Program-made: the position numbers and the translations under genes | Notes under the pieces: model-generated | Database searches by the model: none | Seen by the model: only the letters and a program-made list of their open reading frames with translations | Told to the model about the DNA's origin: nothing | Shown here: piece after piece, positions 2,601-18,796 of the stretch | Layout of the letters: each line of letters starts with the position of its first letter | How positions within the stretch are numbered: the stretch's first letter is position 1 | Origin: a virus | DNA length: 64,000 nt | Reading direction: 5' to 3' (one strand) | Virus record (IMG/VR): IMGVR_UViG_3300035698_009139

Positions 2601-2675
2601 CTTCAGCTACTAATGAAGTATTTTTGTCATGCAGAGTAGACTAATTTTGGTTGAAACGCGAATAGGAGAGCTAAT

Positions 2676-3311
2676 ATGTCCGGTTGGGGAAAAACAACAG
2701 ACGCCAGTGCCGCAGGTAACGTAGACCTGGGTGCTAATAACACACCATTCAGATACAAGGGCGGTTCAAGCCCAGAAGCAGCAACGCAGGCAGCTGAAAA
2801 ACGTAACGTGATTATGACTGATCAGGGGTATGTTCGTCGACTGAATACTGTCGATTTGAACGCCAATCAACGCACACGCGACGAAATCCTTATTGCTCAG
2901 GCCGGCGTGCCAGGTGATGCAGGCTTCCCAAATATCACAGAAATCTACTTGAGCTCCAACGCATCTGGTGGCGTATTATCCGCGGCCGGCGCTGGCAACG
3001 TATATGTTGTGTTCAGCGAGCCTGTTAACTTCAATCTCAACGCCACGGATTTGACGTTGAGCATTGCTAACACAGCTGGTGGTAACCACGCCGTCGCCCG
3101 ATGTGAGGTAGGCGATGCCTTGCTTAATGCCAACAACACATTGGTATTCAAGTTCACATCCGGCGAACGTGGTACATATCAGGTGAACGCACAGTCGATC
3201 GGTGTATCTGGTTCCTTCCAGAACCTAATTTCGCTGAACACATCTGGTGCAACAGCAAACATCGTTATCAGCGGAGCCGTATCAAATAACTTGAGCACGT
3301 TCTCTGCGTAA
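2676..3311 (+). CDS. Putative virion structural protein
   Basis: Gly/Ala/Asn/Ser-rich, beta-strand-like; follows a late promoter; AGGAG RBS. Confidence 0.55.
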   Translation: MSGWGKTTDASAAGNVDLGANNTPFRYKGGSSPEAATQAAEKRNVIMTDQGYVRRLNTVDLNANQRTRDEILIAQAGVPGDAGFPNITEIYLSSNASGGVLSAAGAGNVYVVFSEPVNFNLNATDLTLSIANTAGGNHAVARCEVGDALLNANNTLVFKFTSGERGTYQVNAQSIGVSGSFQNLISLNTSGATANIVISGAVSNNLSTFSA

Positions 3312-3321
3312 GGAGTAAGAC

Positions 3322-3732
3322 ATGGCTGACAGTAAGGTATCCCAACTTGCTGCTGTGACGAGTCCCGCTTCGTCTGATTTGATCCTTATCATTGATGATC
3401 CGAATGGAACGCCAGTAAGCAAGAAGATTACGATCAAGAACTTGTTTGGCAACGTGCCGTCCAATACTGTGTTCGAAGCTACAATGACTGCGCAATCAAA
3501 TGTAACATTCACTGGCACGACAGCCAACGTTACAGCAAACTTGAATAGCACAGGCATCACCACGCTGAATCGACTGATTGTGGCAAACGATCACATCACT
3601 ATTTCAAATCGTCAAACACCTGCGTCTAATACGGCCGCAGGAGCACAAGGCGAATTTGCTTATGATTCAGGATATATGTATGTGGCGGTAGCTAACAATA
3701 TTTGGAAAAGGGCAGCACTGAGTAGTTTCTAA
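3322..3732 (+). CDS. Putative virion structural/fibre-associated protein
   Basis: MADSKVSQL..SDL N-terminus and GEFAYDSGYMYVAVANNIWKRAAL C-terminal motif seen in phage fibre proteins. Confidence 0.6.
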   Translation: MADSKVSQLAAVTSPASSDLILIIDDPNGTPVSKKITIKNLFGNVPSNTVFEATMTAQSNVTFTGTTANVTANLNSTGITTLNRLIVANDHITISNRQTPASNTAAGAQGEFAYDSGYMYVAVANNIWKRAALSSF

Positions 3733-4095
3733 ATGGATGAATTTGAATTGACCGACACTAATTTAACATTGTTTGCCATGAAATATTATCAGAATTCTGG
3801 TTGCACGGACGTGCTTGAGTTCCACGATGATATGAAGCGAATCAAATACATCAAGAGATTGTTCAAGAAATACAAAGATACGGGCGAGCTGAAAGAGCGG
3901 CTGATCCTGAATCATTTGATAGTGCTGTATAACGTGTTCCATCATCCCGCAATGACTAAGATGCTGATGCATCGGCTGAAGGGATATGAGGATTTTTTAA
4001 AAACGTTCCTTATCTATTTGAGCTATTGGCCACCCGAGAGGGGCGTAGAGATTTCAATAGATCAAAGGATAGTGGACGTACTGAGAAGGTTGTAA
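3733..4095 (+). CDS. Conserved T4-like phage hypothetical protein
   Basis: RIKYIKRLFKKY..GELKERLILNHLIVLYNVF motif typical of marine T4-like phages. Confidence 0.7.
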   Translation: MDEFELTDTNLTLFAMKYYQNSGCTDVLEFHDDMKRIKYIKRLFKKYKDTGELKERLILNHLIVLYNVFHHPAMTKMLMHRLKGYEDFLKTFLIYLSYWPPERGVEISIDQRIVDVLRRL

Positions 4096-4096
4096 T

Positions 4097-4798
4097 ATGG
4101 CTAACAAAGGAACAGACCTATACGTAGCATACCGGTTCGTCAAAGAGCTGAGTACACCTTTTGATAAAACAGATGCCTTTTCACTTGGGCTGATCGATGC
4201 TAAGGGCAAACTGCTTAAGCGCCCAAAAACACAAGCAGAAAAGAAAGCATACAACCCATTCGTCAGACTGATCTTCAATGTCAAGAGAGCATTGGGGCGA
4301 GCTGGTTTGGGCAATCGTCTGTCGTCATTCGCCGCGGCAATGTTTCTGATGAAAGAAGAATCATCTGATGATCAGCGGCTGAACTTTTTATGCGACAACG
4401 AGTATGTGTTAAATTCATCTATGCTAAGATGTAGAGCCGAGCTCGGCCGTCTACGCCCAGATCTAGTTATACTTGAAGACGCTCCCACGAACGCAGTTGG
4501 TGGTGGAGCAATAGCGGGAACGGATGACAATCCTCCTGTGCGTAAAAAGCAAAAGAGCTACAGTTTCATCCGCCGCATCAATAATAGTGATGTTTATATG
4601 GTTGACAAGAACACGTTTGCTGCAGCAAAGGTCGGCCGACGCAAAGGATATGCGATGGAAGAAATCAGTGATGAGTTTGCTGAAACGCTAAAAGAGCATC
4701 AAGTCAACGACGTAGGACGCCCGCTAATCATCCAATGCGATGAGACAAACGAATTATTGTTCGTTGCGTATGGGCACAGAAAGCCAAGAGGCATATAA
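4097..4798 (+). CDS. Conserved T4-like phage hypothetical protein
   Basis: YRFVKELSTPF..DAFSLGLIDAKG and EDAPTNAVGGGAIAG motifs. Confidence 0.6.
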   Translation: MANKGTDLYVAYRFVKELSTPFDKTDAFSLGLIDAKGKLLKRPKTQAEKKAYNPFVRLIFNVKRALGRAGLGNRLSSFAAAMFLMKEESSDDQRLNFLCDNEYVLNSSMLRCRAELGRLRPDLVILEDAPTNAVGGGAIAGTDDNPPVRKKQKSYSFIRRINNSDVYMVDKNTFAAAKVGRRKGYAMEEISDEFAETLKEHQVNDVGRPLIIQCDETNELLFVAYGHRKPRGI

Positions 4799-5343
4799 TG
4801 ACACCAGAGCAAATCATCAAAGATATCATCCGCCGCGAAGGTGGGTATAACGACATCAAAGAAGATCAAGGTGGTGCTACCAACCTGGGAATCTCTTTGC
4901 GGTATGCTAAGGGTGTCGGGCTGGATATGGACGGCGACGGCGACACAGATAAAGACGACATCAAGATGGTCGACGAGAAGACGGCCACTAAACTGTACAA
5001 AAATGACTTCTTTACAGGCCCACGAATCAACACGCTACCAGTATCTATCCAAGCGCAGATGTTTGACATAGCTGTTAATGCTGGGCCACCCCGGGCCATT
5101 ATGATGGCGCAAACTATTACTAATCAGGCTGGGTTTGGACCGGTCGACCAAGATGGTGTTATTGGCCCTATGTCACGAGCAGCCATTGAGCGCGCAGTTG
5201 ATGACATGGGCCCATGGTTTGGCAATGCGCTCGTTGAAGAACGGTTGGCACATTATCGCCGAATCATAAAGAACCGTCCATCCCAGCAGAAATTCTGGAA
5301 CGGTTGGCACAATCGCGCCATGGAATTTTACAAGGAAATCTAA
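4798..5343 (+). CDS. Endolysin, glycoside hydrolase family 108 with C-terminal peptidoglycan-binding domain
   Basis: EGGY..D.GGATNLGI catalytic motif, FDIAVNAG, QKFWNGWHNR. Confidence 0.9.
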   Translation: MTPEQIIKDIIRREGGYNDIKEDQGGATNLGISLRYAKGVGLDMDGDGDTDKDDIKMVDEKTATKLYKNDFFTGPRINTLPVSIQAQMFDIAVNAGPPRAIMMAQTITNQAGFGPVDQDGVIGPMSRAAIERAVDDMGPWFGNALVEERLAHYRRIIKNRPSQQKFWNGWHNRAMEFYKEI

Positions 5344-5900
5344 TGTCTATTATTGGAAATTTATTTGCAGGTGGTATACAAGGAATAGCTAAGGCCGGCA
5401 CGCGTGTATACACTGCAGTTGCCGGTGACCAGGTCCAAAAGGACCAACAGTATCACACTGAGCAAATGGCTACGTCAAGTGCATATATATCAGAGTTTGC
5501 TGCTCCAGAGAAGAAGGGTATATTCAACAGCCTAGTTGATGGGGCTAATAGGCTAGTCCGCCCTATATATACATACAACATCATTGGAATGCTGTGGTGG
5601 GCAGTGATTGATCCTGTGCAATTCACGACGGCCATGGTCGCACTTGCTATTGTGCCAGACATGCTGTGGGGAATATTCTTTACGGTGACCAGTTTCTGGT
5701 TCGGTGGGCGATTTATTAAAGACTGGCGTGGTAATAAAATTGACGCTACCAAGCAGTTGGAAACGCTTAAAAACTTGCAGAAAATCCAAGGAAAAATCGG
5801 CGGCGAAGCTTCATACCAAAATGAGCTATCAGATACCTCTAAACCGCTTACCAATTCAGCGATTTTAGAGTGGAACCGAAGACGCCAAGACAATAAATAA
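5343..5900 (+). CDS. Holin (3TM GTA-type holin family)
   Basis: NRLVRP, hydrophobic helices and FWFGGR motif; directly follows the endolysin. Confidence 0.75.
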   Translation: MSIIGNLFAGGIQGIAKAGTRVYTAVAGDQVQKDQQYHTEQMATSSAYISEFAAPEKKGIFNSLVDGANRLVRPIYTYNIIGMLWWAVIDPVQFTTAMVALAIVPDMLWGIFFTVTSFWFGGRFIKDWRGNKIDATKQLETLKNLQKIQGKIGGEASYQNELSDTSKPLTNSAILEWNRRRQDNK

Positions 5901-5937
5901 TCTATATAAAATAATATAAAAAACAGGTGCCATTGTA

Positions 5938-6156
5938 ATGGACGACAATATACCAGATCATAACCTACTAATCCGAATTGATGAACGCACTAAAAACATC
6001 GAAGAAGAGATGAAGAAATTTCCGGCCAAGTATGTGTCGAAGGAAGAATTCCGCCCCATTAAAGCGTTTGTGTATGGGCTTATGACAGCAGTAATGTTAA
6101 CGGTATTGGGTGCTGTTTTAACACTTGTTGTTAATAATGGAGTGCCCGGTGCGTAA
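5938..6156 (+). CDS. Small membrane protein in the lysis cassette
   Basis: Coiled N-terminus with a C-terminal TM helix. Confidence 0.55.
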   Translation: MDDNIPDHNLLIRIDERTKNIEEEMKKFPAKYVSKEEFRPIKAFVYGLMTAVMLTVLGAVLTLVVNNGVPGA

Positions 6157-6609
6157 GTTTTTCGCTCATATTTATTCTCTGTGTGCGGTCGCTGTGGTAT
6201 TAGCGTCGGTGTTAGTGGGAACGTATTGGGGCACATACGGCTCTAGAGAAATGTTTCAGGTTAATACTACTGAGATAGTAGAGATGACGCCTAATAAATT
6301 GGTTATCGATCGCACCATAAAGAAGAGCATGATATGCCCAGTGGTATCCATTGATCATTATTTGATGTTTCCTGGCGGGGCCACACTGGGACTCAGAAAA
6401 GCCAGCATCATGCTGATTACAAAACTAATACGCTGGTAACAATCAGATTTGTATTTGCTCTCCCACCTCAAGTTATAGACGTGTCGGACAAATATGGCCA
6501 CCGAGTGAAGTTGGCATACAGCTGCAACCCCTTCCACCAGCCGGTGTATACGGTTGATTCTAATATTGTTTCAGTGCCACACAAGAAGTTGTCTACCCTT
6601 TCAAAATAG
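6149..6609 (+). pseudogene. Membrane-anchored lysis-region protein split by a frameshift
   Basis: TM-containing frame stops at 6439; the -1 frame is open from ~6356 to 6609 (..YSCNPFHQP..). Confidence 0.5.
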
Positions 6610-6617
6610 CGTATAAT
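6589..6617 (+). promoter_or_regulatory. Sigma70-type early/middle promoter
   Basis: TTGTCT-17nt-TATAAT just upstream of the primase. Confidence 0.7.
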
Positions 6618-6623
6618 ACTTGG

Positions 6624-7661
6624 ATGTCTGTAATGAATGATATCCAGTATGCTAATCTACTATCATCAAGACTAGAGCGATGGGTTGTCAAGAACAACAA
6701 CCCTTTTCTAGCCAATTTCCGTTGCCCAATATGTAGAGATAGCCAAAAGCGCAAGCATAAGAAACGTGGGTTCCTGTTTCAGGTATCTGACGGGCTGATG
6801 TTTAAGTGCCACAACTGTGGGTCGTCTTGGCCATTCTCTAAGCTACTAGAGACAATAGACCCACAAGCGCATAAAGAATATGTCATGGAGAAGTACAAAG
6901 GCACGGGCAAGAAACCTAAAGTGCTTATGCCGATGATGCCTCCCAAACCAGCATTCAAAAATCCAGATAGGTTGATAGACCGACTGATGGATCGGGTTGA
7001 TAGACTCGAGTCTGGGCATCAAGCAGTCGAGTACTGCGAACATCGACAAATTCCCAGAGAGCAATGGCATCGTCTATACTACGTAGACAATATCAGCAAC
7101 ATCAGCCAGCTGTCGGACAAGTATAGAGACCGGATCACCACCAAAGAACCTAGGCTGGTGATCCCTACGTTTGATGCAAACGATAAGCTGGTGCATATGA
7201 CCTGCAGAGCCTTCAGCGATGACCTGATCAGATATCTGACGGTCAATGTAGCAGAGCCGCCTCACCCACCTTTTGGTATAGACAAGTTTGATCGAACCAA
7301 GCGCGGATTCGTAGTAGAGGGGCCGCTGGATAGTCTGTTCGTTCCAAATAGTGTTGCAAGAGGTACGTCTGATTTGAAGGGTGCCATTCCTTGGGTGATA
7401 AAAGAAAATGTCACACTGATATTTGACAACCAGCCAAGAAATCGCGAAATTGTAAAACTAATGCAACGCCATATTGATCAAGGGTTTACGTTGATGATTT
7501 GGCCCGATGGCACAGGGCAAAAAGATATCAACAATATAATCATGGAGGGTGAAATGACGGCTAACCAGCTAATGACTGTCATAAATAATAACACGTTCAA
7601 CGGTCTAGCGTTGCAGGTTAAATTCAACAAGTGGAAGAAGATTGGTGATGGAATTTCTTAA
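6624..7661 (+). CDS. 61: DNA primase (T4 gp61-like)
   Basis: NFRCPICRDS..FKCHNCG zinc-binding domain, VVEGPLDSLF, FDNQPRN, KDIN. Confidence 0.93.
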   Translation: MSVMNDIQYANLLSSRLERWVVKNNNPFLANFRCPICRDSQKRKHKKRGFLFQVSDGLMFKCHNCGSSWPFSKLLETIDPQAHKEYVMEKYKGTGKKPKVLMPMMPPKPAFKNPDRLIDRLMDRVDRLESGHQAVEYCEHRQIPREQWHRLYYVDNISNISQLSDKYRDRITTKEPRLVIPTFDANDKLVHMTCRAFSDDLIRYLTVNVAEPPHPPFGIDKFDRTKRGFVVEGPLDSLFVPNSVARGTSDLKGAIPWVIKENVTLIFDNQPRNREIVKLMQRHIDQGFTLMIWPDGTGQKDINNIIMEGEMTANQLMTVINNNTFNGLALQVKFNKWKKIGDGIS

Positions 7662-8301
7662 AGCAACGGTTGAGTATGTCGATCATATGGGTAGCGATCT
7701 ATCGGTGGTCAATGCTGCTCGTGTATCCTTTGACAAGCATCACGAGATATTTAAACAGCCTGATGATGAAGGGCTGATCAAATATTTGGCCAGAGAAGGA
7801 CACTGGAGCCCATTTGCTCACACGACTATACAGATAAGAGTAAGTTGTTGTTTTGCAATTGCTAAGCAGCTGGCGAAGCACCAGGTGGGGTTTGCATGGA
7901 ACGAGATCAGTAGACGCTACGTTGATTTTGAGCCATCATACTTCAAACCGACCGACTGGCGTTCATCGTCTGCTGACAAGAAGCAAGGTTCTGGTGAGGC
8001 TCTAGCTTCACAGACTGTGGTGGATAAAGTTTACATGGATGCGATCGCAGACGCCAATGAGGCATATAATAGGTTACTAGCATTGGGCGTATGTGCAGAG
8101 CAAGCTAGATTTGTGATGCCCCTGGGTGCCATGACGACGTGGTATTGGACGGGGTCTGTTTATGGTTTTGCGCGAGTGTTTAACCAGCGATCAAAAGAAG
8201 GGCACAATGCCCAAGAAGAAGCCGAGGATGTCGCAAAACTGATCGTCCAGATATGCAACCAACACTTTCCAGTCTCTTGGAAGTATCTTACAGGAAAATA
8301 A
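7648..8301 (+). CDS. thyX: Flavin-dependent thymidylate synthase
   Basis: MGSDLSVVNAARVSF, HWSPF, KHQVG..NEISRRY, EQARFVMP. Confidence 0.93.
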   Translation: MEFLKATVEYVDHMGSDLSVVNAARVSFDKHHEIFKQPDDEGLIKYLAREGHWSPFAHTTIQIRVSCCFAIAKQLAKHQVGFAWNEISRRYVDFEPSYFKPTDWRSSSADKKQGSGEALASQTVVDKVYMDAIADANEAYNRLLALGVCAEQARFVMPLGAMTTWYWTGSVYGFARVFNQRSKEGHNAQEEAEDVAKLIVQICNQHFPVSWKYLTGK

Positions 8302-8307
8302 CTAAAA

Positions 8308-10095
8308 ATGCAGTACGAAGGTATCGAGATCGATTTGTCTCGCGACGAACTATTTGACAAACTTGGCCTGATTCGCCTACAAGAATCATATATGAGAGAC
8401 GACGAGACCAGCCCACAGCATCGATTTGCATACGTGGCTAAACGATTCGGTACAGATATAGCACATTCGCAACGACTGTATGATTATATGTCGAAGCATT
8501 GGCTGTCGTGCAGCACGCCTATTCTTAGTTACGGCCGCACGGAGCGCGGTCTGCCAATCAGTTGCTATCTAAATTACATTGACGATAGCTCGGCAGGATT
8601 GGTGGACACATTATCTGAGACCAACTGGCTTTCGATGCTCGGCGGAGGGGTTGGAATAGGTTTCGGTATGCGAGCGGCTGGCGAGAAGTCTACTGGCGTC
8701 ATCCCACATCTTAAACTGTATGATGCATCGTCTCTGGCTTATCGTCAAGGCAAAACGCGCCGCGGAAGTTATGCAGCATATCTAAACATCGACCATCCAG
8801 ACATCACCCAGTTCCTCGAGATGCGTAAGTCCACGGGCGACCAAAACTTACGTTGCCTGAATCTCCATCACGGTATCAACATCTCCGATAAGTTCATGCA
8901 GATCATTGAGAATCTGATGACAGATCCGAATGCTGATGACACATGGAATCTGATTGACCCACACACCAATAGTGTGACGGAAGTAGTCAGCGCACGTGAG
9001 TTGTGGCAGAAGATCATGGAATTGCGAATGCAGACCGGCGAACCTTATATGCATTTCATCGACACAAGTAACAAGCATTTACCGCAGTGGCTGAAGGACA
9101 GAGGCCTGGAAATACGCCAGTCTAATCTGTGTAGTGAAATCATTCTGCCGACCAATGAAGACCGCACTGCAGTATGCTGCTTGAGTTCGCTGAATTTGGA
9201 ACACTATGACGCGTGGCGCCGCAACCCTGGCTTCTTGCAGGACGTTGCTGAGATGTTGGACAATGTGCTGCAGTTTTTCATCGACACGGCTCCTGACACA
9301 ATCAGCCGGGCTATCTATAGTGCAACACGTGAACGATCGATTGGTATTGGTGCCCTCGGCTTCCACGCATACCTGCAGAAGAATGGTATTCCGTTTGAGA
9401 GTGCGATGGCTAAGTCTGCTAACATCCGTTTATTCAAATACATCCGCACATCACTGGATGCAGCCAATCTTGTGTTGGGCAAGGAACGCGGTGAGGCACC
9501 AGACGCAGAGGGAACAGGCCTGCGGTTCAGTCATTTGATGGCAATCGCTCCGAACGCATCATCGTCAATTATCATGGGCAACACATCGCCTTCGATTGAA
9601 CCATATCGGGCTAATGCATATCGTCAGGATACATTGTCCGGATCTCATATGAATAAGAATCGCCACTTGGATGCACTGATCAAAAAGCATTGTGAGGGTG
9701 ATACGGCAATGTATGATCGAATTTGGTCGTCGATCATTTCTAATGACGGTAGCTGTCAGCACTTGTCGTGGATGGAAGATTACGACAAAGATGTATATAA
9801 GACAGCAATGGAAATCGATCAGCGCTGGGTGATAGAACATGCAGCAACCAGGCAGCAATGGATCGATCAAGCACAGTCATTGAACTTATTCTTTCGGCCG
9901 GACAGCAACATCAAGTATTTACATGCGTGCCATTTTCTCGCTTGGAAATCTGGACTAAAGACGCTATACTATTGTAGGTCAGAGAAAATCGGTAAGGCCG
10001 ATAAGGTCGCAAAGAAGATCGAGCGACAAATCATCAAAGAATTAGATTTTGAAGCAATCATCGCAGGTGATGATTGCATAGCATGTGAGGGATAA
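8308..10095 (+). CDS. nrdA: Ribonucleotide reductase class Ia alpha subunit
   Basis: LPISC, QSNLCSEI, AIAPNASSS, KTLYYCRS, C-terminal CIACEG. Confidence 0.97.
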   Translation: MQYEGIEIDLSRDELFDKLGLIRLQESYMRDDETSPQHRFAYVAKRFGTDIAHSQRLYDYMSKHWLSCSTPILSYGRTERGLPISCYLNYIDDSSAGLVDTLSETNWLSMLGGGVGIGFGMRAAGEKSTGVIPHLKLYDASSLAYRQGKTRRGSYAAYLNIDHPDITQFLEMRKSTGDQNLRCLNLHHGINISDKFMQIIENLMTDPNADDTWNLIDPHTNSVTEVVSARELWQKIMELRMQTGEPYMHFIDTSNKHLPQWLKDRGLEIRQSNLCSEIILPTNEDRTAVCCLSSLNLEHYDAWRRNPGFLQDVAEMLDNVLQFFIDTAPDTISRAIYSATRERSIGIGALGFHAYLQKNGIPFESAMAKSANIRLFKYIRTSLDAANLVLGKERGEAPDAEGTGLRFSHLMAIAPNASSSIIMGNTSPSIEPYRANAYRQDTLSGSHMNKNRHLDALIKKHCEGDTAMYDRIWSSIISNDGSCQHLSWMEDYDKDVYKTAMEIDQRWVIEHAATRQQWIDQAQSLNLFFRPDSNIKYLHACHFLAWKSGLKTLYYCRSEKIGKADKVAKKIERQIIKELDFEAIIAGDDCIACEG

Positions 10096-10097
10096 TT

Positions 10098-10679
10098 ATG
10101 AATTTTCTACCAATACAGAAGATGTCGGCTGATAAACTGGTTTTTGCTATGTGTGCTAAATATGCTAAACCTAACGGTCTTGGCTTCTCTATAGAGAAGC
10201 ATGAGGTGGGGCTAGACGTTGAAGCCAATATGTCGAAAGCCGTATCCCAATTGATGCAAGAAAAGTTTGAAATGTTGGACCGGCCAGTTGATATGAAGTG
10301 GAACCCACCACATCACAACAAATGGCAGAAGATCATCCGCATCATTCGAGGCACAGGAGATGATATACATCCACTTAATCATGCCATACACCGCGCGGGC
10401 AACAAAATTGCGAAGCGGACACGAAGGGGTATAGGTAATGTGTTGATTTATAATCCGGGTTGGACACATTACGGAATGGAATCCTCTCTGACTGGCACCC
10501 CGGTCACAAAGATCCGCCACCCACTATGCCCTCTTGATAAAATGCTCTTGTTGTATATGGGAGAGAATGATTTCGATGCTGGTTATATGTACGTGGAAGG
10601 AAGTGGGTTGTTTAAGCAACCTGATAGATTTTGCAAAGCAGAAGATTATGGCATGTGGATCCAGCTAGACAATGGTTGA
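10098..10679 (+). CDS. Condensed paralogue of T4-type major capsid protein gp23
   Basis: Collinear gp23-like motifs: IQKM..VFAM..Y, GFSIEK, IAKRTRRGIGN, YMGENDFDAGYMY. Confidence 0.7.
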   Translation: MNFLPIQKMSADKLVFAMCAKYAKPNGLGFSIEKHEVGLDVEANMSKAVSQLMQEKFEMLDRPVDMKWNPPHHNKWQKIIRIIRGTGDDIHPLNHAIHRAGNKIAKRTRRGIGNVLIYNPGWTHYGMESSLTGTPVTKIRHPLCPLDKMLLLYMGENDFDAGYMYVEGSGLFKQPDRFCKAEDYGMWIQLDNG

Positions 10680-11262
10680 AATTATTTGGCATCAAAACCC
10701 GCTGAGATCAGAAGTGCTTCTGAACGACAACGACAAGCAGTTGCTCTGGCATAAAGTTAAGATCGAGGAATTGCTGAATGGCATGTGCGGGGCTCACATG
10801 TATATACAAGATGCCCTCAAATCACGTTGGTGGGTACCTGCAGGTATCATAAAGAAGGCCCTCAAAGAGCTGGATTATACTGATGCGATCGATGCCGAAG
10901 TTGATCGAATGACAGAAGTGTGCATCCAAGACTTGAGGGGATGGCATATGGGAGATTGCACTTGTTTCGCAAACAGCTGTGCAAAGTGTCATGCCGAACA
11001 CATGCTAGGAATTGACACCATTAAAGGCTTAGGGAAACATGCTGGGTCCTATGTGTCGTCAGCATTCGACAGCACTGTGCTTGGCGCCCCTGAGCGTACG
11101 ACTGCTGAGGCGATCGACGTGTTGATAAATCGAGACGACTCCGAGAAAACGGACACATGGTCTAATTATTCTGATGAGCAATGGGATAAATTAGTTGCCC
11201 GATGGAACGGGGAACGCAAAGAGGCAATTAAATGGTTAAAGGTCTATCAAGCAAATCTTTAG
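10672..11262 (+). CDS. Hypothetical protein with a Cys/His cluster
   Basis: HMGDCTC..SCAKCHAE; overlapping start/stop. Confidence 0.6.
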   Translation: MVEIIWHQNPLRSEVLLNDNDKQLLWHKVKIEELLNGMCGAHMYIQDALKSRWWVPAGIIKKALKELDYTDAIDAEVDRMTEVCIQDLRGWHMGDCTCFANSCAKCHAEHMLGIDTIKGLGKHAGSYVSSAFDSTVLGAPERTTAEAIDVLINRDDSEKTDTWSNYSDEQWDKLVARWNGERKEAIKWLKVYQANL

Positions 11263-11264
11263 TA

Positions 11265-11492
11265 ATGCCCGTGTGTGACACTAAACGTCACTTGGTGTGC
11301 TACCCATACAATAAACAAAACCTGCATTTAATGGCCAAGGTTATGGGCATAGGCCGACACTGGTTTCACAAAGACCACTATGATATACCGAAAAGACGGC
11401 GACCAGAAATAGAATCTAAATGCTTCAAGGTGAGTAGCAAAGAGATCGTACAAATAATAAAAGGCGGAGAGCTAGAATGGCTAAAGATCTAA
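11265..11492 (+). CDS. DUF4031-like protein
   Basis: LHLMA..MGIGRHWFH.DHYDIP motif. Confidence 0.6.
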   Translation: MPVCDTKRHLVCYPYNKQNLHLMAKVMGIGRHWFHKDHYDIPKRRRPEIESKCFKVSSKEIVQIIKGGELEWLKI

Positions 11493-12448
11493 AACTAACA
11501 GACGAACGCAATTACTTTAAGCCATTCCATTATCCTTGGGCGTACGATGCATGGTTAATGCACGAGCAAAGTCACTGGTTGCACACGGAAGTTCCTATGC
11601 TGGATGACGTCAAAGACTGGCGCCTGCGTCTGTCAGATGCTGAGAAGCATTTCCTAACTCAGATCTTCCGCTTCTTCACTCAGGGTGATATTGACGTAGC
11701 TGATGGGTACGTCAATAATTTTCTGCCGTACTTCCCGCAGCCAGAAGTCCGTATGATGCTCGTAGGGTTCGCTGCACGAGAAGCTCTGCATATTGCTGCA
11801 TACAGCCACCTAATCGAAACATTGGGAATGCCAGAAAGCACGTACAGTGAGTTCTCCGAATACAAGGAGATGCAGAACAAGCACGATTACATTCAGAAGC
11901 TAAGTGGTAAGAGCGCCAAGAATGTGGCGCAACAGATTGCAGCGTTCTCAGCATTCACAGAAGGGATGCAACTGTTCAGCTCATTCATCATGCTGCTGAA
12001 TTTTCCTCGCCACGGCAAGATGAAGGGTATGGGGCAAATCATCACTTGGTCAATCGTTGATGAGACGATGCACGCCGAGTCAATGATCAAGCTGTTCCGA
12101 ACATTCATTGAAGAGAATAAAGATATTTGGAACGACGAGCTGAAAGGCGAGATCTACTCCATTGCAGAGAAAATGGTCAGCCTGGAAGACGAGTTCATCG
12201 ACCTAGCATTCAAGATGGGGTCGGTGGAGAATCTGACGGCCGATGAAGTCAAGAAGTACATCAGGTACATCGCCGACCGTCGATTGATTTCACTGGGGAT
12301 GAAAGGCATCTTCCACGTAAGAACGAACCCGTTGCCATGGGTTGAAACAATGATTAATGCACCCACGCATACGAACTTCTTTGAGAACAGGGCAACGGAT
12401 TATGCTAAGGGTGCGTTGGAAGGTGACTGGGGAGAGGTGTGGGCGTAA
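11477..12448 (+). CDS. nrdB: Ribonucleotide reductase class Ia beta subunit
   Basis: EALHIAAY, FTEGMQLFSSF, DETMH, NFFENRATDY. Confidence 0.97.
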   Translation: MAKDLKLTDERNYFKPFHYPWAYDAWLMHEQSHWLHTEVPMLDDVKDWRLRLSDAEKHFLTQIFRFFTQGDIDVADGYVNNFLPYFPQPEVRMMLVGFAAREALHIAAYSHLIETLGMPESTYSEFSEYKEMQNKHDYIQKLSGKSAKNVAQQIAAFSAFTEGMQLFSSFIMLLNFPRHGKMKGMGQIITWSIVDETMHAESMIKLFRTFIEENKDIWNDELKGEIYSIAEKMVSLEDEFIDLAFKMGSVENLTADEVKKYIRYIADRRLISLGMKGIFHVRTNPLPWVETMINAPTHTNFFENRATDYAKGALEGDWGEVWA

Positions 12449-12693
12449 GACATTTTGTAAAGTGGCCGCTTAGATTATTCGTTTGGAAGTGGTCTGCTCT
12501 TCTTTTAAAACTAGCAGGGTTCCCTTCTCTTTTAACTAGATATAAAATTGCGAAGGTGCGGAGAGATTTCATGCGCGGACTGCGCAGAGTGTATCCCGGC
12601 CTGGTTGCTGAAGAATTGATAGGTGTTCAACCAATGACAAAGGATGCCGGCCAAATATTTACAATGAGGGTTAAAAACAATGTACGTGATTAA
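12439..12693 (+). CDS. Small protein carrying a gp23 Gol-peptide-like segment
   Basis: RRVYPGLVAEELIGVQPMTKDAGQIFTMR versus T4 gp23 RRAIPNLIAFDICGVQPMNSPTGQVFALR (recalled). Confidence 0.7.
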   Translation: MGVRHFVKWPLRLFVWKWSALLLKLAGFPSLLTRYKIAKVRRDFMRGLRRVYPGLVAEELIGVQPMTKDAGQIFTMRVKNNVRD

Positions 12694-13207
12694 TATGTTC
12701 GGCGGACCGGGCAGCGGCAAGAGTACAACTGCTGCAGGCCTGTTCCATTTGATGAAGTTGAAGAAATATAATGTTGAGCTAGTAACAGAGTACGCAAAAG
12801 ATTTGACGTACGAAGGCCGGTTCACTACACTGAAAAATCAGCTATATGTAACAGGGTGTCAGTTCCAGCGAATGGAGCGGATGAGAGATAAGGTTGATTT
12901 CTTAATCACTGATAGTCCGATGTTGTTTGGCTTGATGTATGCCCCACCAGAATACCCACAATCATTCCGGAACATGGTCGTCGACTTTCACAATATGTTC
13001 AACAACATCAATGTGATGATAGGCCGGTCTAAGGAGTACACGCCACTTGGCCGAAACCACAATGAAGAGCAAGCTCGGTGGTTAGACAAAGAATGCTTAG
13101 AAATACTCCACCATAAGAAAATCAGGCCCGGCAACTACATCAAGGTGGATGGAGATCCCGACGCGGCCGCAAATATCCTGAAAGCAGTTGAGGCGAAGAA
13201 ACTATGA
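12680..13207 (+). CDS. P-loop kinase/ATPase (NadR/AAA_28-like)
   Basis: GGPGSGKST Walker A, EYAKDL, ITDSP. Confidence 0.75.
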   Translation: MYVINMFGGPGSGKSTTAAGLFHLMKLKKYNVELVTEYAKDLTYEGRFTTLKNQLYVTGCQFQRMERMRDKVDFLITDSPMLFGLMYAPPEYPQSFRNMVVDFHNMFNNINVMIGRSKEYTPLGRNHNEEQARWLDKECLEILHHKKIRPGNYIKVDGDPDAAANILKAVEAKKL

Positions 13208-13716
13208 ACAAGTGGGACCGCCGATATCTTAGCTTGGCCCTATTCGTCAGCACTTGGTCGAAAGATCCAAGTACTCAAACTGGTGCAGTAATTATCCGAC
13301 CAGACAATAGTATTGCATCTATCGGGTTCAATGGATTCCCTCGCGGCGAAAATGACGACCCTGAGCTGTATTTGGACAGAGATTATAAATACAAAAACAT
13401 CATCCATGCCGAGATCAACGCCATAGGGAACGCTAATGAAGATGTTGATGGATACACATTGTATCAGTGGCCCGGATACAGTTGCTCGGATTGCGCAACT
13501 GTTATTAGAGATCATGGCCTTGCCCGTGTGGTTAATTTTGAACCGACAAAAGATTTTATCGACAGGTGGGGCGAAGAGTTTGACAGGGCGTCAGTAATAT
13601 TCAAAGTCAGTCGCATCCAAGTTGATTTGATAGAGCGAACTCTTCTGTTCAATATGCTGGAATCCGTAACACTTAGCATGCAACAATTGACGAAGACGGC
13701 GATCAAGTACATGTAA
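13204..13716 (+). CDS. dCMP deaminase
   Basis: WSKDPSTQTGA, GFNGFPRG, HAEINAI, CSDC. Confidence 0.9.
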   Translation: MNKWDRRYLSLALFVSTWSKDPSTQTGAVIIRPDNSIASIGFNGFPRGENDDPELYLDRDYKYKNIIHAEINAIGNANEDVDGYTLYQWPGYSCSDCATVIRDHGLARVVNFEPTKDFIDRWGEEFDRASVIFKVSRIQVDLIERTLLFNMLESVTLSMQQLTKTAIKYM

Positions 13717-13776: not shown

Positions 13777-14223
13777 GTGAGTTACGACAACCCTTGGACG
13801 TTTAATGGACAACTTTTTGACACAGATCAGATCAACAAATCCGAAGGATTCGTTTATATGGTCATCAACCAGCAGACGGGCCAAAAATACATCGGGCGAA
13901 AATACTTCTTTGAAATACGAAAGGTTCGTGGTAAGCTACGACGTCAACGTAGAGAAAGCAATTGGAAATCTTACTACGGCTCAAGTGAACGCATTAAAGC
14001 TGATATCGAAGAGATTGGACGAGAAGCTTTCTTACGCACTATACTATCCATACACAAGACACGAGGCGACTGCAACTATGCCGAGGTACGAGAACAATTT
14101 TCTCACAACGTGTTGGAATCCGAAGGCTACTACAACGACAACATATCAGGCAAGTGGCATAATAAACCTCTGCATATCATAGAAGGAAGACGTATATCTA
14201 ATGGATCAATCTTCATTACCTGA
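13777..14223 (+). CDS. GIY-YIG family endonuclease-like protein
   Basis: GFVY..KYIGRK, WKSYYGSS, YYNDNI. Confidence 0.75.
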   Translation: MSYDNPWTFNGQLFDTDQINKSEGFVYMVINQQTGQKYIGRKYFFEIRKVRGKLRRQRRESNWKSYYGSSERIKADIEEIGREAFLRTILSIHKTRGDCNYAEVREQFSHNVLESEGYYNDNISGKWHNKPLHIIEGRRISNGSIFIT

Positions 14224-14794
14224 ACACCTCGGCGGCCATATGAATAAGACCCATGTGGATGGAGGCGCTCTTCGTCTACTGAGAAAGAAATTCAATATTG
14301 AAACAATGCTCGACATTGGCTGTGGCACCGGGGGAATGGTGGAGCTGGCTGATAGTTTAGGCATACAAGCGGAAGGAGTAGATGGTGACTTCACATTGGC
14401 GAAGCAGTGGGAACAAGCGAACATATTCGTCCACGTCCACGATTTCAGCAAAGGACCGCCAAACCTATACGAAGGCACCCAATATGATCTCGGCTGGTCT
14501 GTCGAATTTCTTGAACATGTTGAGCAGCAGTATATGGATAATTATTTTGCTTTCTTTAATGTGTGCCGGTATGTTGTATGTACTGCTGCGCCGCCTGGTT
14601 GGGCAGGACACCACCACGTAAATTGCCAGACCAAAGAATATTGGATTGAAGAATTCTCGAAGCGCGGCTTTTCATTCGATCAACAGATGACTGATGATAT
14701 TCATAAAGCATCAACAATGACTAAGCCGTTTATGGCGCAGACAGGGATGTTTTTCGAAAACAAAAGCAAGATTTGGCCCGACATAGATGATTAA
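14201..14794 (+). CDS. Class I SAM-dependent methyltransferase
   Basis: LDIGCGTG, SVEFLEHV, GHHHVNCQ..YW. Confidence 0.85.
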   Translation: MDQSSLPEHLGGHMNKTHVDGGALRLLRKKFNIETMLDIGCGTGGMVELADSLGIQAEGVDGDFTLAKQWEQANIFVHVHDFSKGPPNLYEGTQYDLGWSVEFLEHVEQQYMDNYFAFFNVCRYVVCTAAPPGWAGHHHVNCQTKEYWIEEFSKRGFSFDQQMTDDIHKASTMTKPFMAQTGMFFENKSKIWPDIDD

Positions 14795-15566
14795 TGTTCG
14801 TGGTGCATTAGGCACCCAAGTGATTGAATTACTAGCTGCACTGGCCCGCCTTGCTGAGAATGGTGAGAAGATTGAGAACAGAAGTTCTGGGTGGCGGCCA
14901 TCGTCATATGGGTTATCACGAGAAACGAGCTCAGCCATACCACAAGCCCCGGCGTGGTTCATCAATATCAATGCTGGTGGCGATGTAGTGGACACCGTCC
15001 GTGAAGACTATTTAAGTCAGTTGATATGCAATGTAAGCTGTACGGTTGATCTGAACGGGACTAAGAAAACTGGCGGTTGGAATGTTGAAGACTTCCGGCT
15101 GATCAAAAAGCACAACGCGGCTATCTGTGATGCGCTGGTGTTCCGTAATATGAACAACAGCGTGTATCTAAAAGAACTGATACACGTTAGAGGCAAGGAT
15201 CGACAACTGATATCGACCAACACGTACATCAAAATGTACGACAAGCTACGGCTGCCAGTTATTGGAGACGACCCGCACATCATAGATATAATGACGTATG
15301 AGGATAACTATATAGGACACGTGCATAGACGTATGGGCATTGACTACACTGCGGCCCAGGATTGGATGACCGTGCTGAATGCAGATGTGGTGCATTGCAG
15401 CATTAGTTCGTTTGTGATCAGTGCACTATTGTTGGACCCAATGAAAGAGGCTCACATCATCCGCCCCACAGAGGGCGCCCCACATAAAGTCAGTTCGCAC
15501 GTGGTCGACGCAGTAGAATTTTTAGCGCAGGAGTGGCCGAATGTTACTTTCGATGAGTTTAAATAG
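14787..15566 (+). CDS. GT11-like fucosyl/colitosyl-transferase
   Basis: RGALGTQ (cf. GGLGNQ), IHVRGKD (cf. HVRRGD), SSF near the C-terminus. Confidence 0.6.
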   Translation: MINVRGALGTQVIELLAALARLAENGEKIENRSSGWRPSSYGLSRETSSAIPQAPAWFININAGGDVVDTVREDYLSQLICNVSCTVDLNGTKKTGGWNVEDFRLIKKHNAAICDALVFRNMNNSVYLKELIHVRGKDRQLISTNTYIKMYDKLRLPVIGDDPHIIDIMTYEDNYIGHVHRRMGIDYTAAQDWMTVLNADVVHCSISSFVISALLLDPMKEAHIIRPTEGAPHKVSSHVVDAVEFLAQEWPNVTFDEFK

Positions 15567-16545
15567 AGCAGTAGTTAAAGGACATTTGTCCAGTGTTGAA
15601 CTCGAAAAGATCCGGCGGATAGAAGCCCCGTTTGCTAAAAGGTATGACGAAGGAACGCTATCGCTCAGTGATCTACCTGCACTGTGGATAGCTACGTGCG
15701 CGACAGCGGCAGTGATTGTTGGCGATAAGTTTTATGGGTTCACACTGAACGGCAGCAAGAACTTATCAGATTCTGATTTGATAGCTGACACAAACATGAA
15801 TGAGAGAGGCCTACACATTATGCGTGTAGTGTATTCCCATTACAACTACATGGCCCGGGCAGGATCTCGAGTGATTCCAACCGGCTTAATGATGTTGAAA
15901 GATTTTCTGCCAGACGACCAACGTAAGAATGTAGCCAGAGACATTGATCTGACCCATTGGTTCTCTAACAAGCAGCCAGACAACATGCCCAGTACTCCGG
16001 CCATTATGCAGATGATTGATTCGAGTGGTATGAAAGAGTTTGTAGCAAGAGCAGCGGGCCTGAAGCCCGATGACAAAGAGTTCCAGGCGAACTACAAAAG
16101 CAACACGTTTATTCAGCGGCTGGTTATTCGCCCAGATGACAATGATGAGCAGAAAGTAGCTCATTCTGATATCTTTTTCCCAGCTGTCAAATTCTGGTAC
16201 TTCCCGGATAGGGTGGAAGACGGCCTCGGCGCATTCAATTACACAACAGGCCACAACAACCAGCTAACATATAAGATGTTGGACATGTTGTACACCATGT
16301 CAGTAGAGGCTTGCTTTGGGACATACGCACCATGGAGAGGCCGCGGTCACGTAGAGGGTAGTTTCCGATTCAGTCCAGAAGAGTTGGCAGAGTGTGGGAT
16401 GTCCTGTGATCCGGTTCCAGTGGAAGCAAATACGTTAGTGATTGCAAATGTGTTCTGGCCGCATCGTCGAGGAGACACAATCAAGAAGGTGACCCGTAGC
16501 GCCATACATGGATCGATAAGAGTGAAGCAACCGTTTAGGAGTTAA
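15553..16545 (+). CDS. 2OG-Fe(II) dioxygenase (PhyH-like)
   Basis: HSD..KFWYF, GAFNY, distal HRRG and R. Confidence 0.65.
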   Translation: MSLNRAVVKGHLSSVELEKIRRIEAPFAKRYDEGTLSLSDLPALWIATCATAAVIVGDKFYGFTLNGSKNLSDSDLIADTNMNERGLHIMRVVYSHYNYMARAGSRVIPTGLMMLKDFLPDDQRKNVARDIDLTHWFSNKQPDNMPSTPAIMQMIDSSGMKEFVARAAGLKPDDKEFQANYKSNTFIQRLVIRPDDNDEQKVAHSDIFFPAVKFWYFPDRVEDGLGAFNYTTGHNNQLTYKMLDMLYTMSVEACFGTYAPWRGRGHVEGSFRFSPEELAECGMSCDPVPVEANTLVIANVFWPHRRGDTIKKVTRSAIHGSIRVKQPFRS

Positions 16546-16548
16546 ATT

Positions 16549-17568
16549 ATGAAGGCGTTTATTACAGGAATCACCGGCCAAGATGGATCGTATCTGGCTG
16601 AGTTACTTCTGGCCAAGGGCTACGAGGTACATGGAATGAAGCGGAGGTCATCTTCATTCAACACCGCACGCATCGACCACATCTTTGATGACCTCCATTT
16701 GCATTATGGAGACATGACAGACTCAGTAGCCTTGTCCCGCCTGGTCAAGGAAATTCAACCAGATGAAGTATACAACCTGGCTGCACAGAGTCACGTTGCG
16801 GTTAGCTTCGAGTCACCAGACTACACGGCAACGTGTGATGCGCTGGGTACACTGCGGCTACTGGAGGCTATCAGAGCAGCATCACCAACCCCATTCATTC
16901 GGACCAAATTCTATCAAGCGTCAACGTCTGAGCTGTTTGGTAATTCACCAGCACCTCAGAATGAAGAGACCAGGTTTGCACCAGAGAGTCCGTACGGTAC
17001 CGCTAAGTTATATGCATACCACATCACAAAGAACTATCGCACGGCGTATAATATGTTCGCGGTTAACGGTATTCTATTTAACCACGAGAGTCCCCGCCGA
17101 GGAGAGACATTCGTCACACGTAAAGTGACGATGGCTGTTGCAGAGTATGCTAGGTTCTCACCCTGGCCCTCCCCAGCCAGCTGGAATCCAATACAGTTAG
17201 GCAACACGACTGCTAAAAGAGATTGGACGCATGCGAAGGACATGGTGGAAGGTATGTGGATGATGCTGCAACGATCTGATCCTGCTGATTTTGTTATGGG
17301 GTCCGGCAAGAGCCATACTATTCGTGAATTGGTGGATGTGGCTTTCCAATGCATTGGCGTCAAAACTAGATGGAATGAGGCCGGGAATTGTTATGATAAT
17401 AATTCAGGCACAATGCTGGTACAAACGAATGCTAGATATAAACGTCCGAATGAGGTATGGAACCTACAGTCAGATCCTTCGAAAGTGAAAGAGGATCTCG
17501 GATGGGAACCAAAGATTTCATTCAAACAGCTTATCGCAGAAATGGTACAGGCAGATTATGACAGTTAA
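16549..17568 (+). CDS. gmd: GDP-mannose 4,6-dehydratase
   Basis: GITGQDGSYLAELLL, YNLAAQSHV, QASTSELFG, NHESPRRGETFVTRK. Confidence 0.97.
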   Translation: MKAFITGITGQDGSYLAELLLAKGYEVHGMKRRSSSFNTARIDHIFDDLHLHYGDMTDSVALSRLVKEIQPDEVYNLAAQSHVAVSFESPDYTATCDALGTLRLLEAIRAASPTPFIRTKFYQASTSELFGNSPAPQNEETRFAPESPYGTAKLYAYHITKNYRTAYNMFAVNGILFNHESPRRGETFVTRKVTMAVAEYARFSPWPSPASWNPIQLGNTTAKRDWTHAKDMVEGMWMMLQRSDPADFVMGSGKSHTIRELVDVAFQCIGVKTRWNEAGNCYDNNSGTMLVQTNARYKRPNEVWNLQSDPSKVKEDLGWEPKISFKQLIAEMVQADYDS

Positions 17569-18796
17569 TTATCCACTCGCTATGAATCAATGGCATCCAG
17601 CTTCCGTCGAAAAGGGCGTAGAGGTTTTACGAAGTGGTATGTGCACGATGGGGGAGCAGACGTGGATCTTTGAGCAAGATTTTGCGGCGTTCCATGACGT
17701 CAATCACGCAATAATGGTCAACAGCGGCAGTAGTGCAAATCTGATTGCATTGGCCGCCCTAGTTGAATTGGATGTAATCGGGCCCGGCGATAAGATTGCC
17801 GTTCCTGCAGTCAGTTGGAGCACTACATACTTTCCGTTGCTGCAACTGGGTCTAGTGCCTTGCTTCGTTGATGTTGATGCTGTCACAATGAATGTCAATG
17901 TTGATAAGCTGGCCAATTACTTCAATGCAAACCCGGACATCATCGCCATGTTTGCAGTCAACGTGTTGGGATGCCCGAGTGATCTGGTTGGCCTGGTTGA
18001 TTTGTGCCTCGAACACGATGTCATATTGTTTGAAGACAATTGTGAGAGTTTGGGAGCCACCTACGCTCATGGCAAGCGGGCTGGAACTGCCGGCTGGTTT
18101 GGCACATCCAGCTTTTTCTACAGCCATCACATCAGCACAATAGAGGGTGGGATGATTGTAACAAACGATGATGCAATCGCCGCAACGTGTCGGTCACTTA
18201 GAGCTCATGGCTGGTTGAGGGATTCAGATATGGACGCTATGTATGAAGCCACACAAGAGCAGTGCTTCGACCGCGATCAGTATGACGATTTCAAGTTCGC
18301 ATTCACATTTGCAACTCAAGGATACAGCGTCCGCCCGACCGATGTGTCCGCTGCGATCGGCCGAGAAGAGTTGAAGCACTTGCCTTCGTATCTGCACGCC
18401 CGAGCCGTCAACCGAGCCAAGTTCCGCAAGAAATTCGATAACCACCCAGATGTTATGATCCAGCGGAAATCCCATATGTTTGATATGCCGTCATGGTTTG
18501 GGCTTGCAATGGTGACTAGAGGGAAGTTAACACATAGGCGGATGCGACTATATGATGAGCTGAAGAAACGGGGTATTGCCTCCCGCCCAATCATCGCAGG
18601 AGACTTTACCAGACAGCCAGTGATGAGAAGGTTGCGGCCAGACCAAGACTTCAAGATTGCACCGCATCTGTTCCTGTCATCCAGCGGCACAGATTATATT
18701 GATAAGCACGGGTTGTATGTTGGCTGCTTCAACCACATTATGGACGATGATTTATTTGAAGCAGTAGAGGATGCAATCGATGCGGCCGGAAAATAA
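17558..18796 (+). CDS. colD: PLP-dependent GDP-4-keto-6-deoxymannose 3-dehydratase (ColD-type, DegT family)
   Basis: VNSGSSANL, EDNCESLGA, SFFYSHHISTIEGG with His where aminotransferases have the catalytic Lys. Confidence 0.8.
   Translation: MTVNYPLAMNQWHPASVEKGVEVLRSGMCTMGEQTWIFEQDFAAFHDVNHAIMVNSGSSANLIALAALVELDVIGPGDKIAVPAVSWSTTYFPLLQLGLVPCFVDVDAVTMNVNVDKLANYFNANPDIIAMFAVNVLGCPSDLVGLVDLCLEHDVILFEDNCESLGATYAHGKRAGTAGWFGTSSFFYSHHISTIEGGMIVTNDDAIAATCRSLRAHGWLRDSDMDAMYEATQEQCFDRDQYDDFKFAFTFATQGYSVRPTDVSAAIGREELKHLPSYLHARAVNRAKFRKKFDNHPDVMIQRKSHMFDMPSWFGLAMVTRGKLTHRRMRLYDELKKRGIASRPIIAGDFTRQPVMRRLRPDQDFKIAPHLFLSSSGTDYIDKHGLYVGCFNHIMDDDLFEAVEDAIDAAGK

Follow-up and report, generated by a model that had tools for sequence, protein, structure and literature searches.

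Results

Gene organization at the nrdA-nrdB locus

Our analysis of a 64,000-nucleotide stretch of DNA from a salt-lake, T4-like phage (IMG/VR record IMGVR_UViG_3300035698_009139; the whole stretch is henceforth called 'the window') centres on an intact open reading frame (ORF; 10098..10679, plus strand) which occupies the slot between the ribonucleotide reductase (RNR) genes nrdA and nrdB. Its 193-residue product (P0001) is here called mini-gp23, and the ORF itself, Pfam and hhalign comparisons and an AlphaFold2 model mark it as a predicted minimal HK97 core derived from T4-type gp23. A first-pass annotation, made from the letters alone, had proposed an intact miniature relative of gp23 at this very place, and the ORF, its translation, hhalign and the predicted fold confirm the proposal. 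Mini-gp23 is no one-off paralogue but a member of an old, selectively maintained, gp23-derived phage family that has not been described before; no paper on such genes was found in the open-access papers and preprints searched.

The upstream neighbour nrdA (8308..10095, +; Pfam Ribonuc_red_lgC, E = 4e-109) terminates with a stop codon at 10093-10095, leaving a spacer of 2 nucleotides (nt) to the mini-gp23 start, and a Shine-Dalgarno sequence, GAGG (10087..10090, +), can be read within the last nrdA codons, 7 nt 5' of the ATG. Three ORFs make up the lineage-specific insert between nrdA and nrdB: (i) mini-gp23, (ii) a called ORF of 196 residues (10672..11262, +) with a Cys/His cluster, HMGDCTCFANSCAKCHAEH, which overlaps the mini-gp23 stop by 8 nt, is predicted to be translationally coupled to mini-gp23 and gave no family match in Pfam, PHROGs, NCBIfam or PADLOC, and (iii) a DUF4031 ORF (11232..11492, +; Pfam DUF4031, E = 4.3e-10). 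The downstream edge of this variable slot is formed by nrdB (11477..12448, +; Pfam Ribonuc_red_sm, E = 1.2e-77). All of these genes belong to a gap-free array (6624-13716) in which every gene lies on the plus strand and abuts or overlaps the next, in the order 345-residue ORF, thyX, nrdA, mini-gp23, 196-residue ORF, DUF4031, nrdB, 84-residue ORF, deoxynucleoside monophosphate-kinase-like ATPase and dCMP deaminase; mini-gp23 is probably co-translated with these pre-replicative nucleotide enzymes.

Copies of the T4 late-promoter motif TATAAATA are more frequent in the window than expected (8 versus 1.66), and all of them are on the plus strand (2593, 13384, 26804, 30338, 35142, 37751, 59719 and 63934), and both the enrichment and the strand bias are consistent with T4-type late promoters. 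A motif scan of the window gave no copy from 2600 to 13384, and hence none that is mini-gp23's own; the copy at 13384 is located inside the dCMP deaminase gene, ~390 nt before a SegE-like gene. The window likewise yielded no full-length gp23, and six-frame scans revealed no other gp23 debris around mini-gp23; apart from mini-gp23, the ORF at 12439-12693 alone is gp23-like in the window. The packed non-structural operon and the lack of a full-length gp23 in the window are in line with the earlier remark that the gene is remote from head genes. The identical protein, in every letter, is encoded on an ENA contig and on a Logan contig from other samples, and three to four metagenome runs from salt lakes have contigs that span the ORF and agree with it throughout, none of them skipping it.

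Sequence relationship to gp23

The Pfam family Gp23 (PF07068) aligns with residues 86-120 of mini-gp23 (profile positions 217-251) at 22.9 bits and is thus below the curated cut-off of 24.4 bits, which is exceeded by the relatives P0009 (39.2 bits) and P0008 (29.8 bits). When the family profile was compared by hhalign with six full-length gp23/gp24 sequences, a match at 97.1 % (E = 6.2e-11) was obtained, placing residues 85-168 on T4 350-453, and a gp23 hidden Markov model (HMM) built from 111 sequences matches all family members collinearly, with mini-gp23 covering only positions 178-262 and 310-330 of 388. As judged from these alignments, we regard the homology of mini-gp23 to T4-type gp23 as firm, despite the sub-cut-off Pfam score.

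The first-pass annotation had listed four gp23 blocks occurring in order. For a block test, the protein was cut into six blocks, each of which was aligned to T4 gp23 and to a full-length gp23 used as comparison (P0013, 466 residues), with 500 shuffles. Two of the four blocks stand: residues 87-122 align with T4 gp23 347-377 (score 46) and P0013 297-330 (score 73), and residues 144-170 with T4 438-450 and P0013 389-408, none of the 500 shuffles reaching the score in any of these comparisons. The other two, that is, the N-terminal block (62/500 shuffles against T4; a borderline 5/500 against P0013) and the GFSIEK block (107/500), are not significant against T4, though their best local alignments are collinear (T4 124-133, VFALRAVYGK, and 250-259, MGFRIDKQVI); at the profile level, alternative hhalign alignments gave no significant match for the N-terminal half.

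On the DNA, the first of the two significant blocks (10356..10463, +) encodes the A-domain helix and the R-R-G-x-G-N loop, with invariant R110, G111, G113, N114 and P120, and the second (10527..10607, +) the A-domain strands with the Y-x-G...D-x-G-x-x-Y motif (Y153, G155 and D160); both assignments are based on shuffles and invariant columns, and the first also on Pfam. Residues 14-36 (10137..10205, +) form, according to the secondary structure of the model and the local alignments, a predicted β-hairpin at the location of gp23's VFALRAVY strand, insertion domain and GFRIDK strand, with a tight turn in place of the insertion.

Among the other searches, PHROGs returned a weak major-head match only (E = 0.045), NCBIfam and PADLOC had no match for mini-gp23, and phmmer of P0001 against PDB sequences gave none at E <= 10. 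With tblastn against 50,697 phage records, P0001 and the relative P0007 had no match, and the relative P0003 found only the real capsid gene of a jumbo Vibrio phage. Megablast of window positions 8000-13000 gave no match, and a degenerate DNA pattern for TRRGxGNxxxYNP had 0 matches in viral contigs and two chance matches, to unrelated bacterial genes, in metagenome contigs.

Predicted structure

AlphaFold2, supplied with an alignment of 24 members, gave a model with a predicted local distance difference test score (pLDDT) of 85.7 and a predicted TM-score (pTM) of 0.81, all five models being above 81, while 10 sequences gave a pLDDT of 69. The polypeptide is predicted to form, in order, a short N-terminal strand, a long hairpin made up of residues 14-24 and 27-36, a helix at 45-53, a linker of poor order (~60-90), the long A-domain helix (92-108), the A-domain strands and a C-terminal strand (185-191). 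The best Foldseek match is T4 gp23 of the unexpanded head (E = 4.8e-4). Independently of Foldseek, VIA-align was run against 48,161 PDB representative chains, and its best 50 matches are all HK97-fold shell proteins (Z up to 10.3; 151-174 of 193 residues aligned; matched chains of 228-584 residues). T4 gp23 is matched with a Z-score of 9.8 (root mean square deviation (r.m.s.d.) 4.4 Å, 174/193 residues), with residues 1-193 of the model collinear on 107-521, and gp24 with a Z-score of 9.6 over residues 35-421; the first model compared with gp23 in 7vrt yielded Z 11.4 (r.m.s.d. 3.6 Å, 168 residues). The A-domain encapsulin 2PK8 is absent among the 50 VIA-align matches listed. In the ESM Atlas all scores were below 0.9, and its own model of mini-gp23 was poor.

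Since the alignment to gp23 is collinear and the top 50 matches are HK97-only, mini-gp23 is best described as a predicted complete but minimal HK97 core, bearing in mind that the fold is a prediction from a shallow alignment, for a family related to proteins which AlphaFold has seen. Kept in the model are (i) an N-terminal strand from inside the Gol region, (ii) a hairpin in place of the insertion domain, (iii) a short spine helix, (iv) an intact A-domain and (v) the C-terminal strand, and missing are gp23's N-terminal propeptide and insertion domain, along with most peripheral parts (long E-loop, P-domain). The fold comparison that the first-pass annotation had suggested (AlphaFold, Foldseek) therefore led to an HK97/gp23-like fold and not to an unrelated one, and its statement that long intervening segments are deleted holds as well, with 193 modelled residues spanning gp23 107-521 and a turn replacing the insertion domain. 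The full-length Pfam Gp23 architecture consists of propeptide, N-arm, insertion domain, long E-loop and P-domain in ~390-520 residues; by length, architecture, genomic place and Pfam cut-off mini-gp23 would thus not be classified as a major capsid protein (MCP), and by its predicted structure it would belong to the HK97 fold.

A family of short gp23 relatives

The family comprises ~30 short proteins of 163-317 residues. An exhaustive phmmer search with P0001 of 1.8 billion representatives retrieved nine relatives (E = 2.5e-8 to 6.7e-4), all of them in this size range, and no full-length gp23; in profile searches a clean gap separates the miniatures (E <= 6.5e-29) from Gp23-family proteins of ~390 residues (~1e-6). 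Compact relatives with only 24-35 % identity to mini-gp23 keep the invariant residues, which in 24 members are A48, R110, G111, G113, N114, P120 and D160; F3, Q7, E49, Y153, G155 and Y184 are near-invariant, and the common N-terminus reads M-x-F-L-x-x-Q. Four members (P0003, P0008, P0011 and P0012; e.g. L004:8001-8822 and L005:5925-6746) carry consensus twin-arginine (Tat) signals ahead of that motif, which would imply that a folded HK97-like core reaches the periplasm.

A maximum-likelihood tree groups 18 members in one clade (96/91) and the Tat-bearing members in another (100/97), and leaves P0001, P0002, P0010, P0004 and the protein of contig L112 (see below) on long unplaced branches, while the full-length gp23 clade does not fall clearly outside. 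The miniatures are likely to have arisen only once, but this falls short of proof because the backbone of the tree lacks resolution. Purifying selection on the family matches in strength that on its enzyme neighbours: for the closest pair in the clade of 18, whose members are flanked by dihydrofolate reductase (DHFR) and thymidylate synthase (TS) genes, the ratio of non-synonymous to synonymous substitution rates (dN/dS) is 0.10 for the miniature, 0.15 for DHFR and 0.11 for TS, and within the L095/L097/L098 subclade the respective identities are 71-80 %, 58-84 % and 63-75 %.

Genomic settings

In the window's own lineage mini-gp23 is an accessory gene: 0 of 80 viral contigs with an nrdB at 77-82 % identity (L015-L094) carry mini-gp23, the Gol-segment ORF described below, the 196-residue ORF or DUF4031. 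Their nrdA-nrdB gap varies from -40 to 3837 nt, which makes it a hypervariable cargo slot; judged from their N-termini alone, ORFs in this slot look like thioredoxin-, IscU/IscA- and PstS-type proteins and like an HNH endonuclease. In 63 of the 80 relatives nrdB is followed by a SegE-like GIY-YIG gene, which in the window is displaced to 13777-14223. It may then be asked whether mini-gp23 is a non-functional remnant, that is, what is left of a gp23 gene that was duplicated or carried along by an endonuclease and is now decaying, its frame still open by chance. The hypervariability of the slot, the SegE-like endonuclease gene 3 kb downstream and the occurrence of segD beside gene 23 in T4 would fit such an origin, but relatives of the same size retain the invariant residues at 24-35 % identity, dN/dS is ~0.1 in the clade where it is measurable, other frames are free of gp23 debris and the fold is predicted with confidence. 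Together, these four observations come close to refuting a decaying pseudogene, which we consider extremely improbable. Hitch-hiking with the SegE-like endonuclease is rejected, considering that the 63 relatives with the endonuclease gene have no gp23 piece.

Elsewhere the family is found mostly inside DNA-precursor operons. Every member of the clade of 18 with readable flanks (at least 11 distinct contigs) shows the order DHFR-miniature-TS, the start of the miniature overlapping the DHFR end by ~29 nt and the TS start usually overlapping the stop of the miniature; among more distant TS relatives, DHFR and TS are mostly directly adjacent, without a mini gene. In this clade DHFR is immediately preceded by conserved MoxR-like AAA and DUF2201 genes. 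In four viral records of the clade (14-44 % complete) the mini gene is the sole PF07068 match. A contig of 159 kb (L099/L110; IMGVR_UViG_3300031541_000012), whose only PF07068 match is the miniature, is estimated by CheckV to be 44 % complete, and the clade therefore includes jumbo-sized phages.

The stability of the family between DHFR and TS, with dN/dS ~0.1, makes an enzyme-linked role a serious rival to the interpretation that we favour below. Acting as a scaffold or chaperone of an enzyme complex, the miniature core would self-associate via its A-domain and hold or stabilise RNR in the window, and DHFR and TS elsewhere. Such a role could account for (i) three placements which are all in deoxynucleoside triphosphate (dNTP) operons, that is, after nrdA in the window, between DHFR and TS with overlapping stops and starts, and after TS in L112, and (ii) the conservation of the miniature at or above the level of DHFR and TS within the subclade; (iii) there is also a published precedent in which a truncated HK97 protein is encoded together with an enzyme and binds to it (PMC8346489), and the role would parallel the one suggested for Family 4 'A-domain' encapsulins. 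However, the 80 close nrdB relatives lack the gene and fill the slot with unrelated cargo, and the DHFR-TS pairs of related phages mostly do without it. The DHFR-miniature-TS cases moreover represent one clade, and therefore roughly one independent event, and neither the Tat-exported members nor the member adjacent to a gp13-like gene fit a scaffold, which would also leave the retention of separate Gol/N-arm and C-terminal gp23 fragments (see below) without explanation. A complex prediction for DHFR, TS and the miniature from the P0007 clade scored 0.01 and spoke neither for nor against a scaffold. Overall, we consider an enzyme scaffold somewhat unlikely.

Other members are located outside dNTP operons. 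The gene of P0002, the closest relative by E-value, comes after a gp13-like gene and a gene of 267 residues; P0006 is encoded among small unknown ORFs; and the gene of P0003 is part of an accessory arm with S21, HSP20, ClpS, RF-1-like, NifU, Apyc1 and Gad2 homologues on a phage-like contig of 93-103 kb, a few kb from the anti-Pycsar Apyc1 and anti-Gabija Gad2 homologues. That the gene of P0002 directly follows neck genes (gp13-like and putative gp14-like) is one reason to think of a head-assembly factor or minor head protein, whose A-domain would join or cap gp23 capsomers (as a special vertex, a nucleator or a brake on assembly) or would poison capsid assembly of co-infecting relatives. The preservation of the motifs most conserved in gp23/gp24 A-domains, and the position of the DHFR-miniature-TS block of contig L096 within 7 kb of gp15 and gp13, point in the same direction. 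Yet mini-gp23 starts at gp23 ~107 and thus has neither a propeptide nor a capsid-targeting sequence at its N-terminus, the lattice-linking HK97 periphery has almost disappeared from the model, the gene has no late promoter motif and appears to be translationally coupled to enzyme genes of early/middle type, and it is missing from 80 close relatives which presumably have the same head. A function in the head thus seems quite unlikely to us.

Separate Gol and C-terminal segments

A Gol-like ORF had also been noticed 1.8 kb from mini-gp23 in the first-pass annotation. It corresponds to the ORF at 12439..12693 (+), which starts with GTG, encodes 84 residues and comprises solely the gp23 N-arm/Gol segment; its match to profile positions 1-44 of Pfam Gp23 is significant, at 36.9 bits exceeding the cut-off, and 430 phage MCP records were matched. 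The ORF extends into both neighbours, overlapping the 3' end of nrdB and the 5' end of the following gene. An alternative start (ATG 12571, preceded by GGAG at 12560-12563) would yield a peptide of 40 residues consisting almost entirely of the Gol motif; the longer form begins with 44 residues that are Trp-rich, hydrophobic and basic.

The idea of a capsid-mimic module, put forward along with that ORF, gains independent support from L112, an unrelated, T4-like contig of 10.8 kb with a gp32 homologue. Here the order is DHFR, a 126-residue ORF, a 155-residue ORF, TS and a miniature of 178 residues (the gp23-derived ORFs being in L112:910-3146). The C-terminus of the 126-residue ORF is a gp23 N-arm/Gol segment (Pfam Gp23 52.4 bits, profile positions 4-48), that of the 155-residue ORF a gp23 C-terminal segment (32.9 bits, positions 304-352), and the miniature matches P0001 with a BLASTP E of 2e-11 and reads RRGLAR where the family has the invariant RRGxGN. 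The two fragment ORFs have a paralogous N-terminal domain of ~75-90 residues in common (E = 4e-7), which was found nowhere else in the DNA searched; the Gol ORFs of the window and of L112 have the gp23 segment alone in common. Given that window and L112 both possess a miniature and a Gol ORF, two unrelated phages therefore keep separate gp23 pieces in dNTP operons. A family-wide pairing of miniature and Gol ORF is rejected, considering that no Gol-like fragment is present in the available flanks of L004, L006, L012, L013 and L099-L105.

Other genes of the window

Outside the operon, an NMN adenylyltransferase-Nudix fusion gene overlaps a gene for a NAMPT-type nicotinamide phosphoribosyltransferase (44965-47444, +), which resembles a phage NAD salvage pair. 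A run of sugar-modification type (14201-21519, +) comprises a methyltransferase, two epimerase/dehydratase-like genes, a DegT-type aminotransferase and a capsule-synthesis-like gene, and an SPFH/Band-7 protein of 491 residues is encoded at 41846-43321.

Discussion

Based on the evidence collected so far, we consider it most likely, with a probability of roughly 0.4, that mini-gp23 is an early-made, non-assembling and soluble stand-in for unassembled gp23. The protein would be made before the head proteins and apart from them, would build no shell lattice, and would occupy, ahead of the late burst of gp23, a factor which recognises the conserved A-domain or the Gol-side surface of gp23. Candidates for that factor include a defence protein of the host that senses capsids, but also other host factors, for instance EF-Tu or a chaperone, and the separate Gol-segment ORF after nrdB might cover the N-arm epitope which the miniature lacks. 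The first-pass annotation had likewise suggested a non-assembling capsid mimic, acting as immune decoy, chaperonin sponge or assembly modulator; its interpretation is supported in part, namely as to the gp23 relationship, the non-structural operon and the module, with the three roles as candidates. We are led to this reading because (i) the retained parts, Gol and A-domain, are those recognised by outside factors while the lattice-forming and scaffold-binding parts are gone, (ii) the operon is non-structural and devoid of the late-promoter motif, (iii) several gp23 parts are mimicked, in the window as well as in L112, and (iv) P0003 neighbours homologues of the anti-defence proteins Apyc1 and Gad2. 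Within gp23 no part is more conserved than the Gol stretch, which binds EF-Tu (PMC3014915), CapRel recognises short MCP motifs (PMC9712102), and the sensors Avs7/8/10 wrap the HK97 fold, chiefly its conserved A-domain, recognising the conserved core and leaving extensions unbound (bioRxiv 10.64898/2026.01.04.697583).

Several considerations weigh against a stand-in for gp23. Because Avs sensors bind the conserved core and not the extensions, a bare HK97 core could trigger them rather than blind them. Strong purifying selection and a DHFR/TS synteny that is fixed across 35-45 % identity look more like the hallmarks of a housekeeping enzyme partner than of an arms-race gene. The Tat export signals of four members do not suit a cytoplasmic decoy, and P0002, though closest by E-value, is encoded after a gp13-like neck gene. 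Finally, the open-access papers and preprints searched contain no precedent for a phage-encoded trigger mimic, nor a report of a phage-encoded MCP mimic inhibiting Avs7/8/10 or CapRel.

The stand-in for gp23 can be extended to an entire modular system, in which some T4-like and jumbo phages would express, from pre-replicative nucleotide-metabolism operons, separate mimics of the Gol/N-arm segment, the A-domain core and the C-terminal segment, so as to saturate or blind capsid-detecting host factors (Lit-, CapRel- and Avs7/8/10-type, or EF-Tu) before gp23 floods the cell late in infection. In this generality the proposal is doubtful; if true, modular capsid mimics would constitute the first trigger-mimic class of anti-defence proteins.

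When compared with T4 gp23 and gp24 (PF07068), mini-gp23 has a homologous A-domain and shares the R-G-x-G-N and Y-x-G...D-x-G motifs. It is, however, much shorter (193 versus 521 and 427 residues), has no propeptide or insertion domain, has its E-loop, spine helix and P-domain reduced to stubs, and is encoded amid nucleotide-metabolism genes without a late promoter motif rather than among head genes. As to the Gol/Lit system of T4, the miniature starts inside the gp23 Gol region and the ORF at 12439-12693 carries a whole Gol-type segment, but Gol of T4 is a part of gp23 that triggers host defence, and a stand-alone Gol gene has not been described there. Avs7/8/10 and CapRel are host proteins and would be possible targets, not relatives, of the miniature and Gol ORFs, in which the recognised parts are retained.

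Proteins with the HK97 fold are known as shell builders, namely as capsids of phages and gene-transfer agents and as encapsulins, and to our knowledge the only truncated HK97 forms described are the A-domain encapsulins of Archaea and Bacteroidetes. These Family 4 encapsulins consist of an A-domain only (~100 residues) and are found in archaea that are hyperthermophilic and in two genera of Bacteroidetes. Their genes directly follow those for GAPDH, DeoC, OsmC or hydrogenase, and the proteins co-purify with GAPDH; enzyme binding has been proposed, their function being unproven (PMC8346489). The miniatures resemble Family 4 encapsulins (PF08967/DUF1884, PDB 2PK8), of which one enzyme neighbour acts in deoxyribose/nucleotide metabolism, in having a heavily truncated HK97 fold and in the position of the gene directly behind that of an enzyme; the latter likeness is one of gene order alone. 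No PF08967 match was obtained at E <= 0.1, hmmscan against Pfam returning Gp23 only, and in contrast to Family 4 the miniatures are larger (163-317 residues), phage-encoded and gp23-derived, and keep the N-terminal hairpin, a stub of the spine helix and the C-terminal strand.

The present study thus reveals a phage family with a predicted full HK97 topology in only 163-220 residues, which is conserved like thymidylate synthase and wired into DNA-precursor rather than head operons. If its members are capsid mimics, they would reveal a novel strategy by which phages deal with capsid-sensing immunity, which could be tested with the existing Lit, CapRel and Avs systems. If they are enzyme scaffolds, they would provide a structural organiser for the long-postulated dNTP-synthetase complex of T4-type phages, and a link to encapsulins. 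Either way, mini-gp23 offers a very small and probably soluble HK97 core which may be useful for studying the folding and association of this fold.

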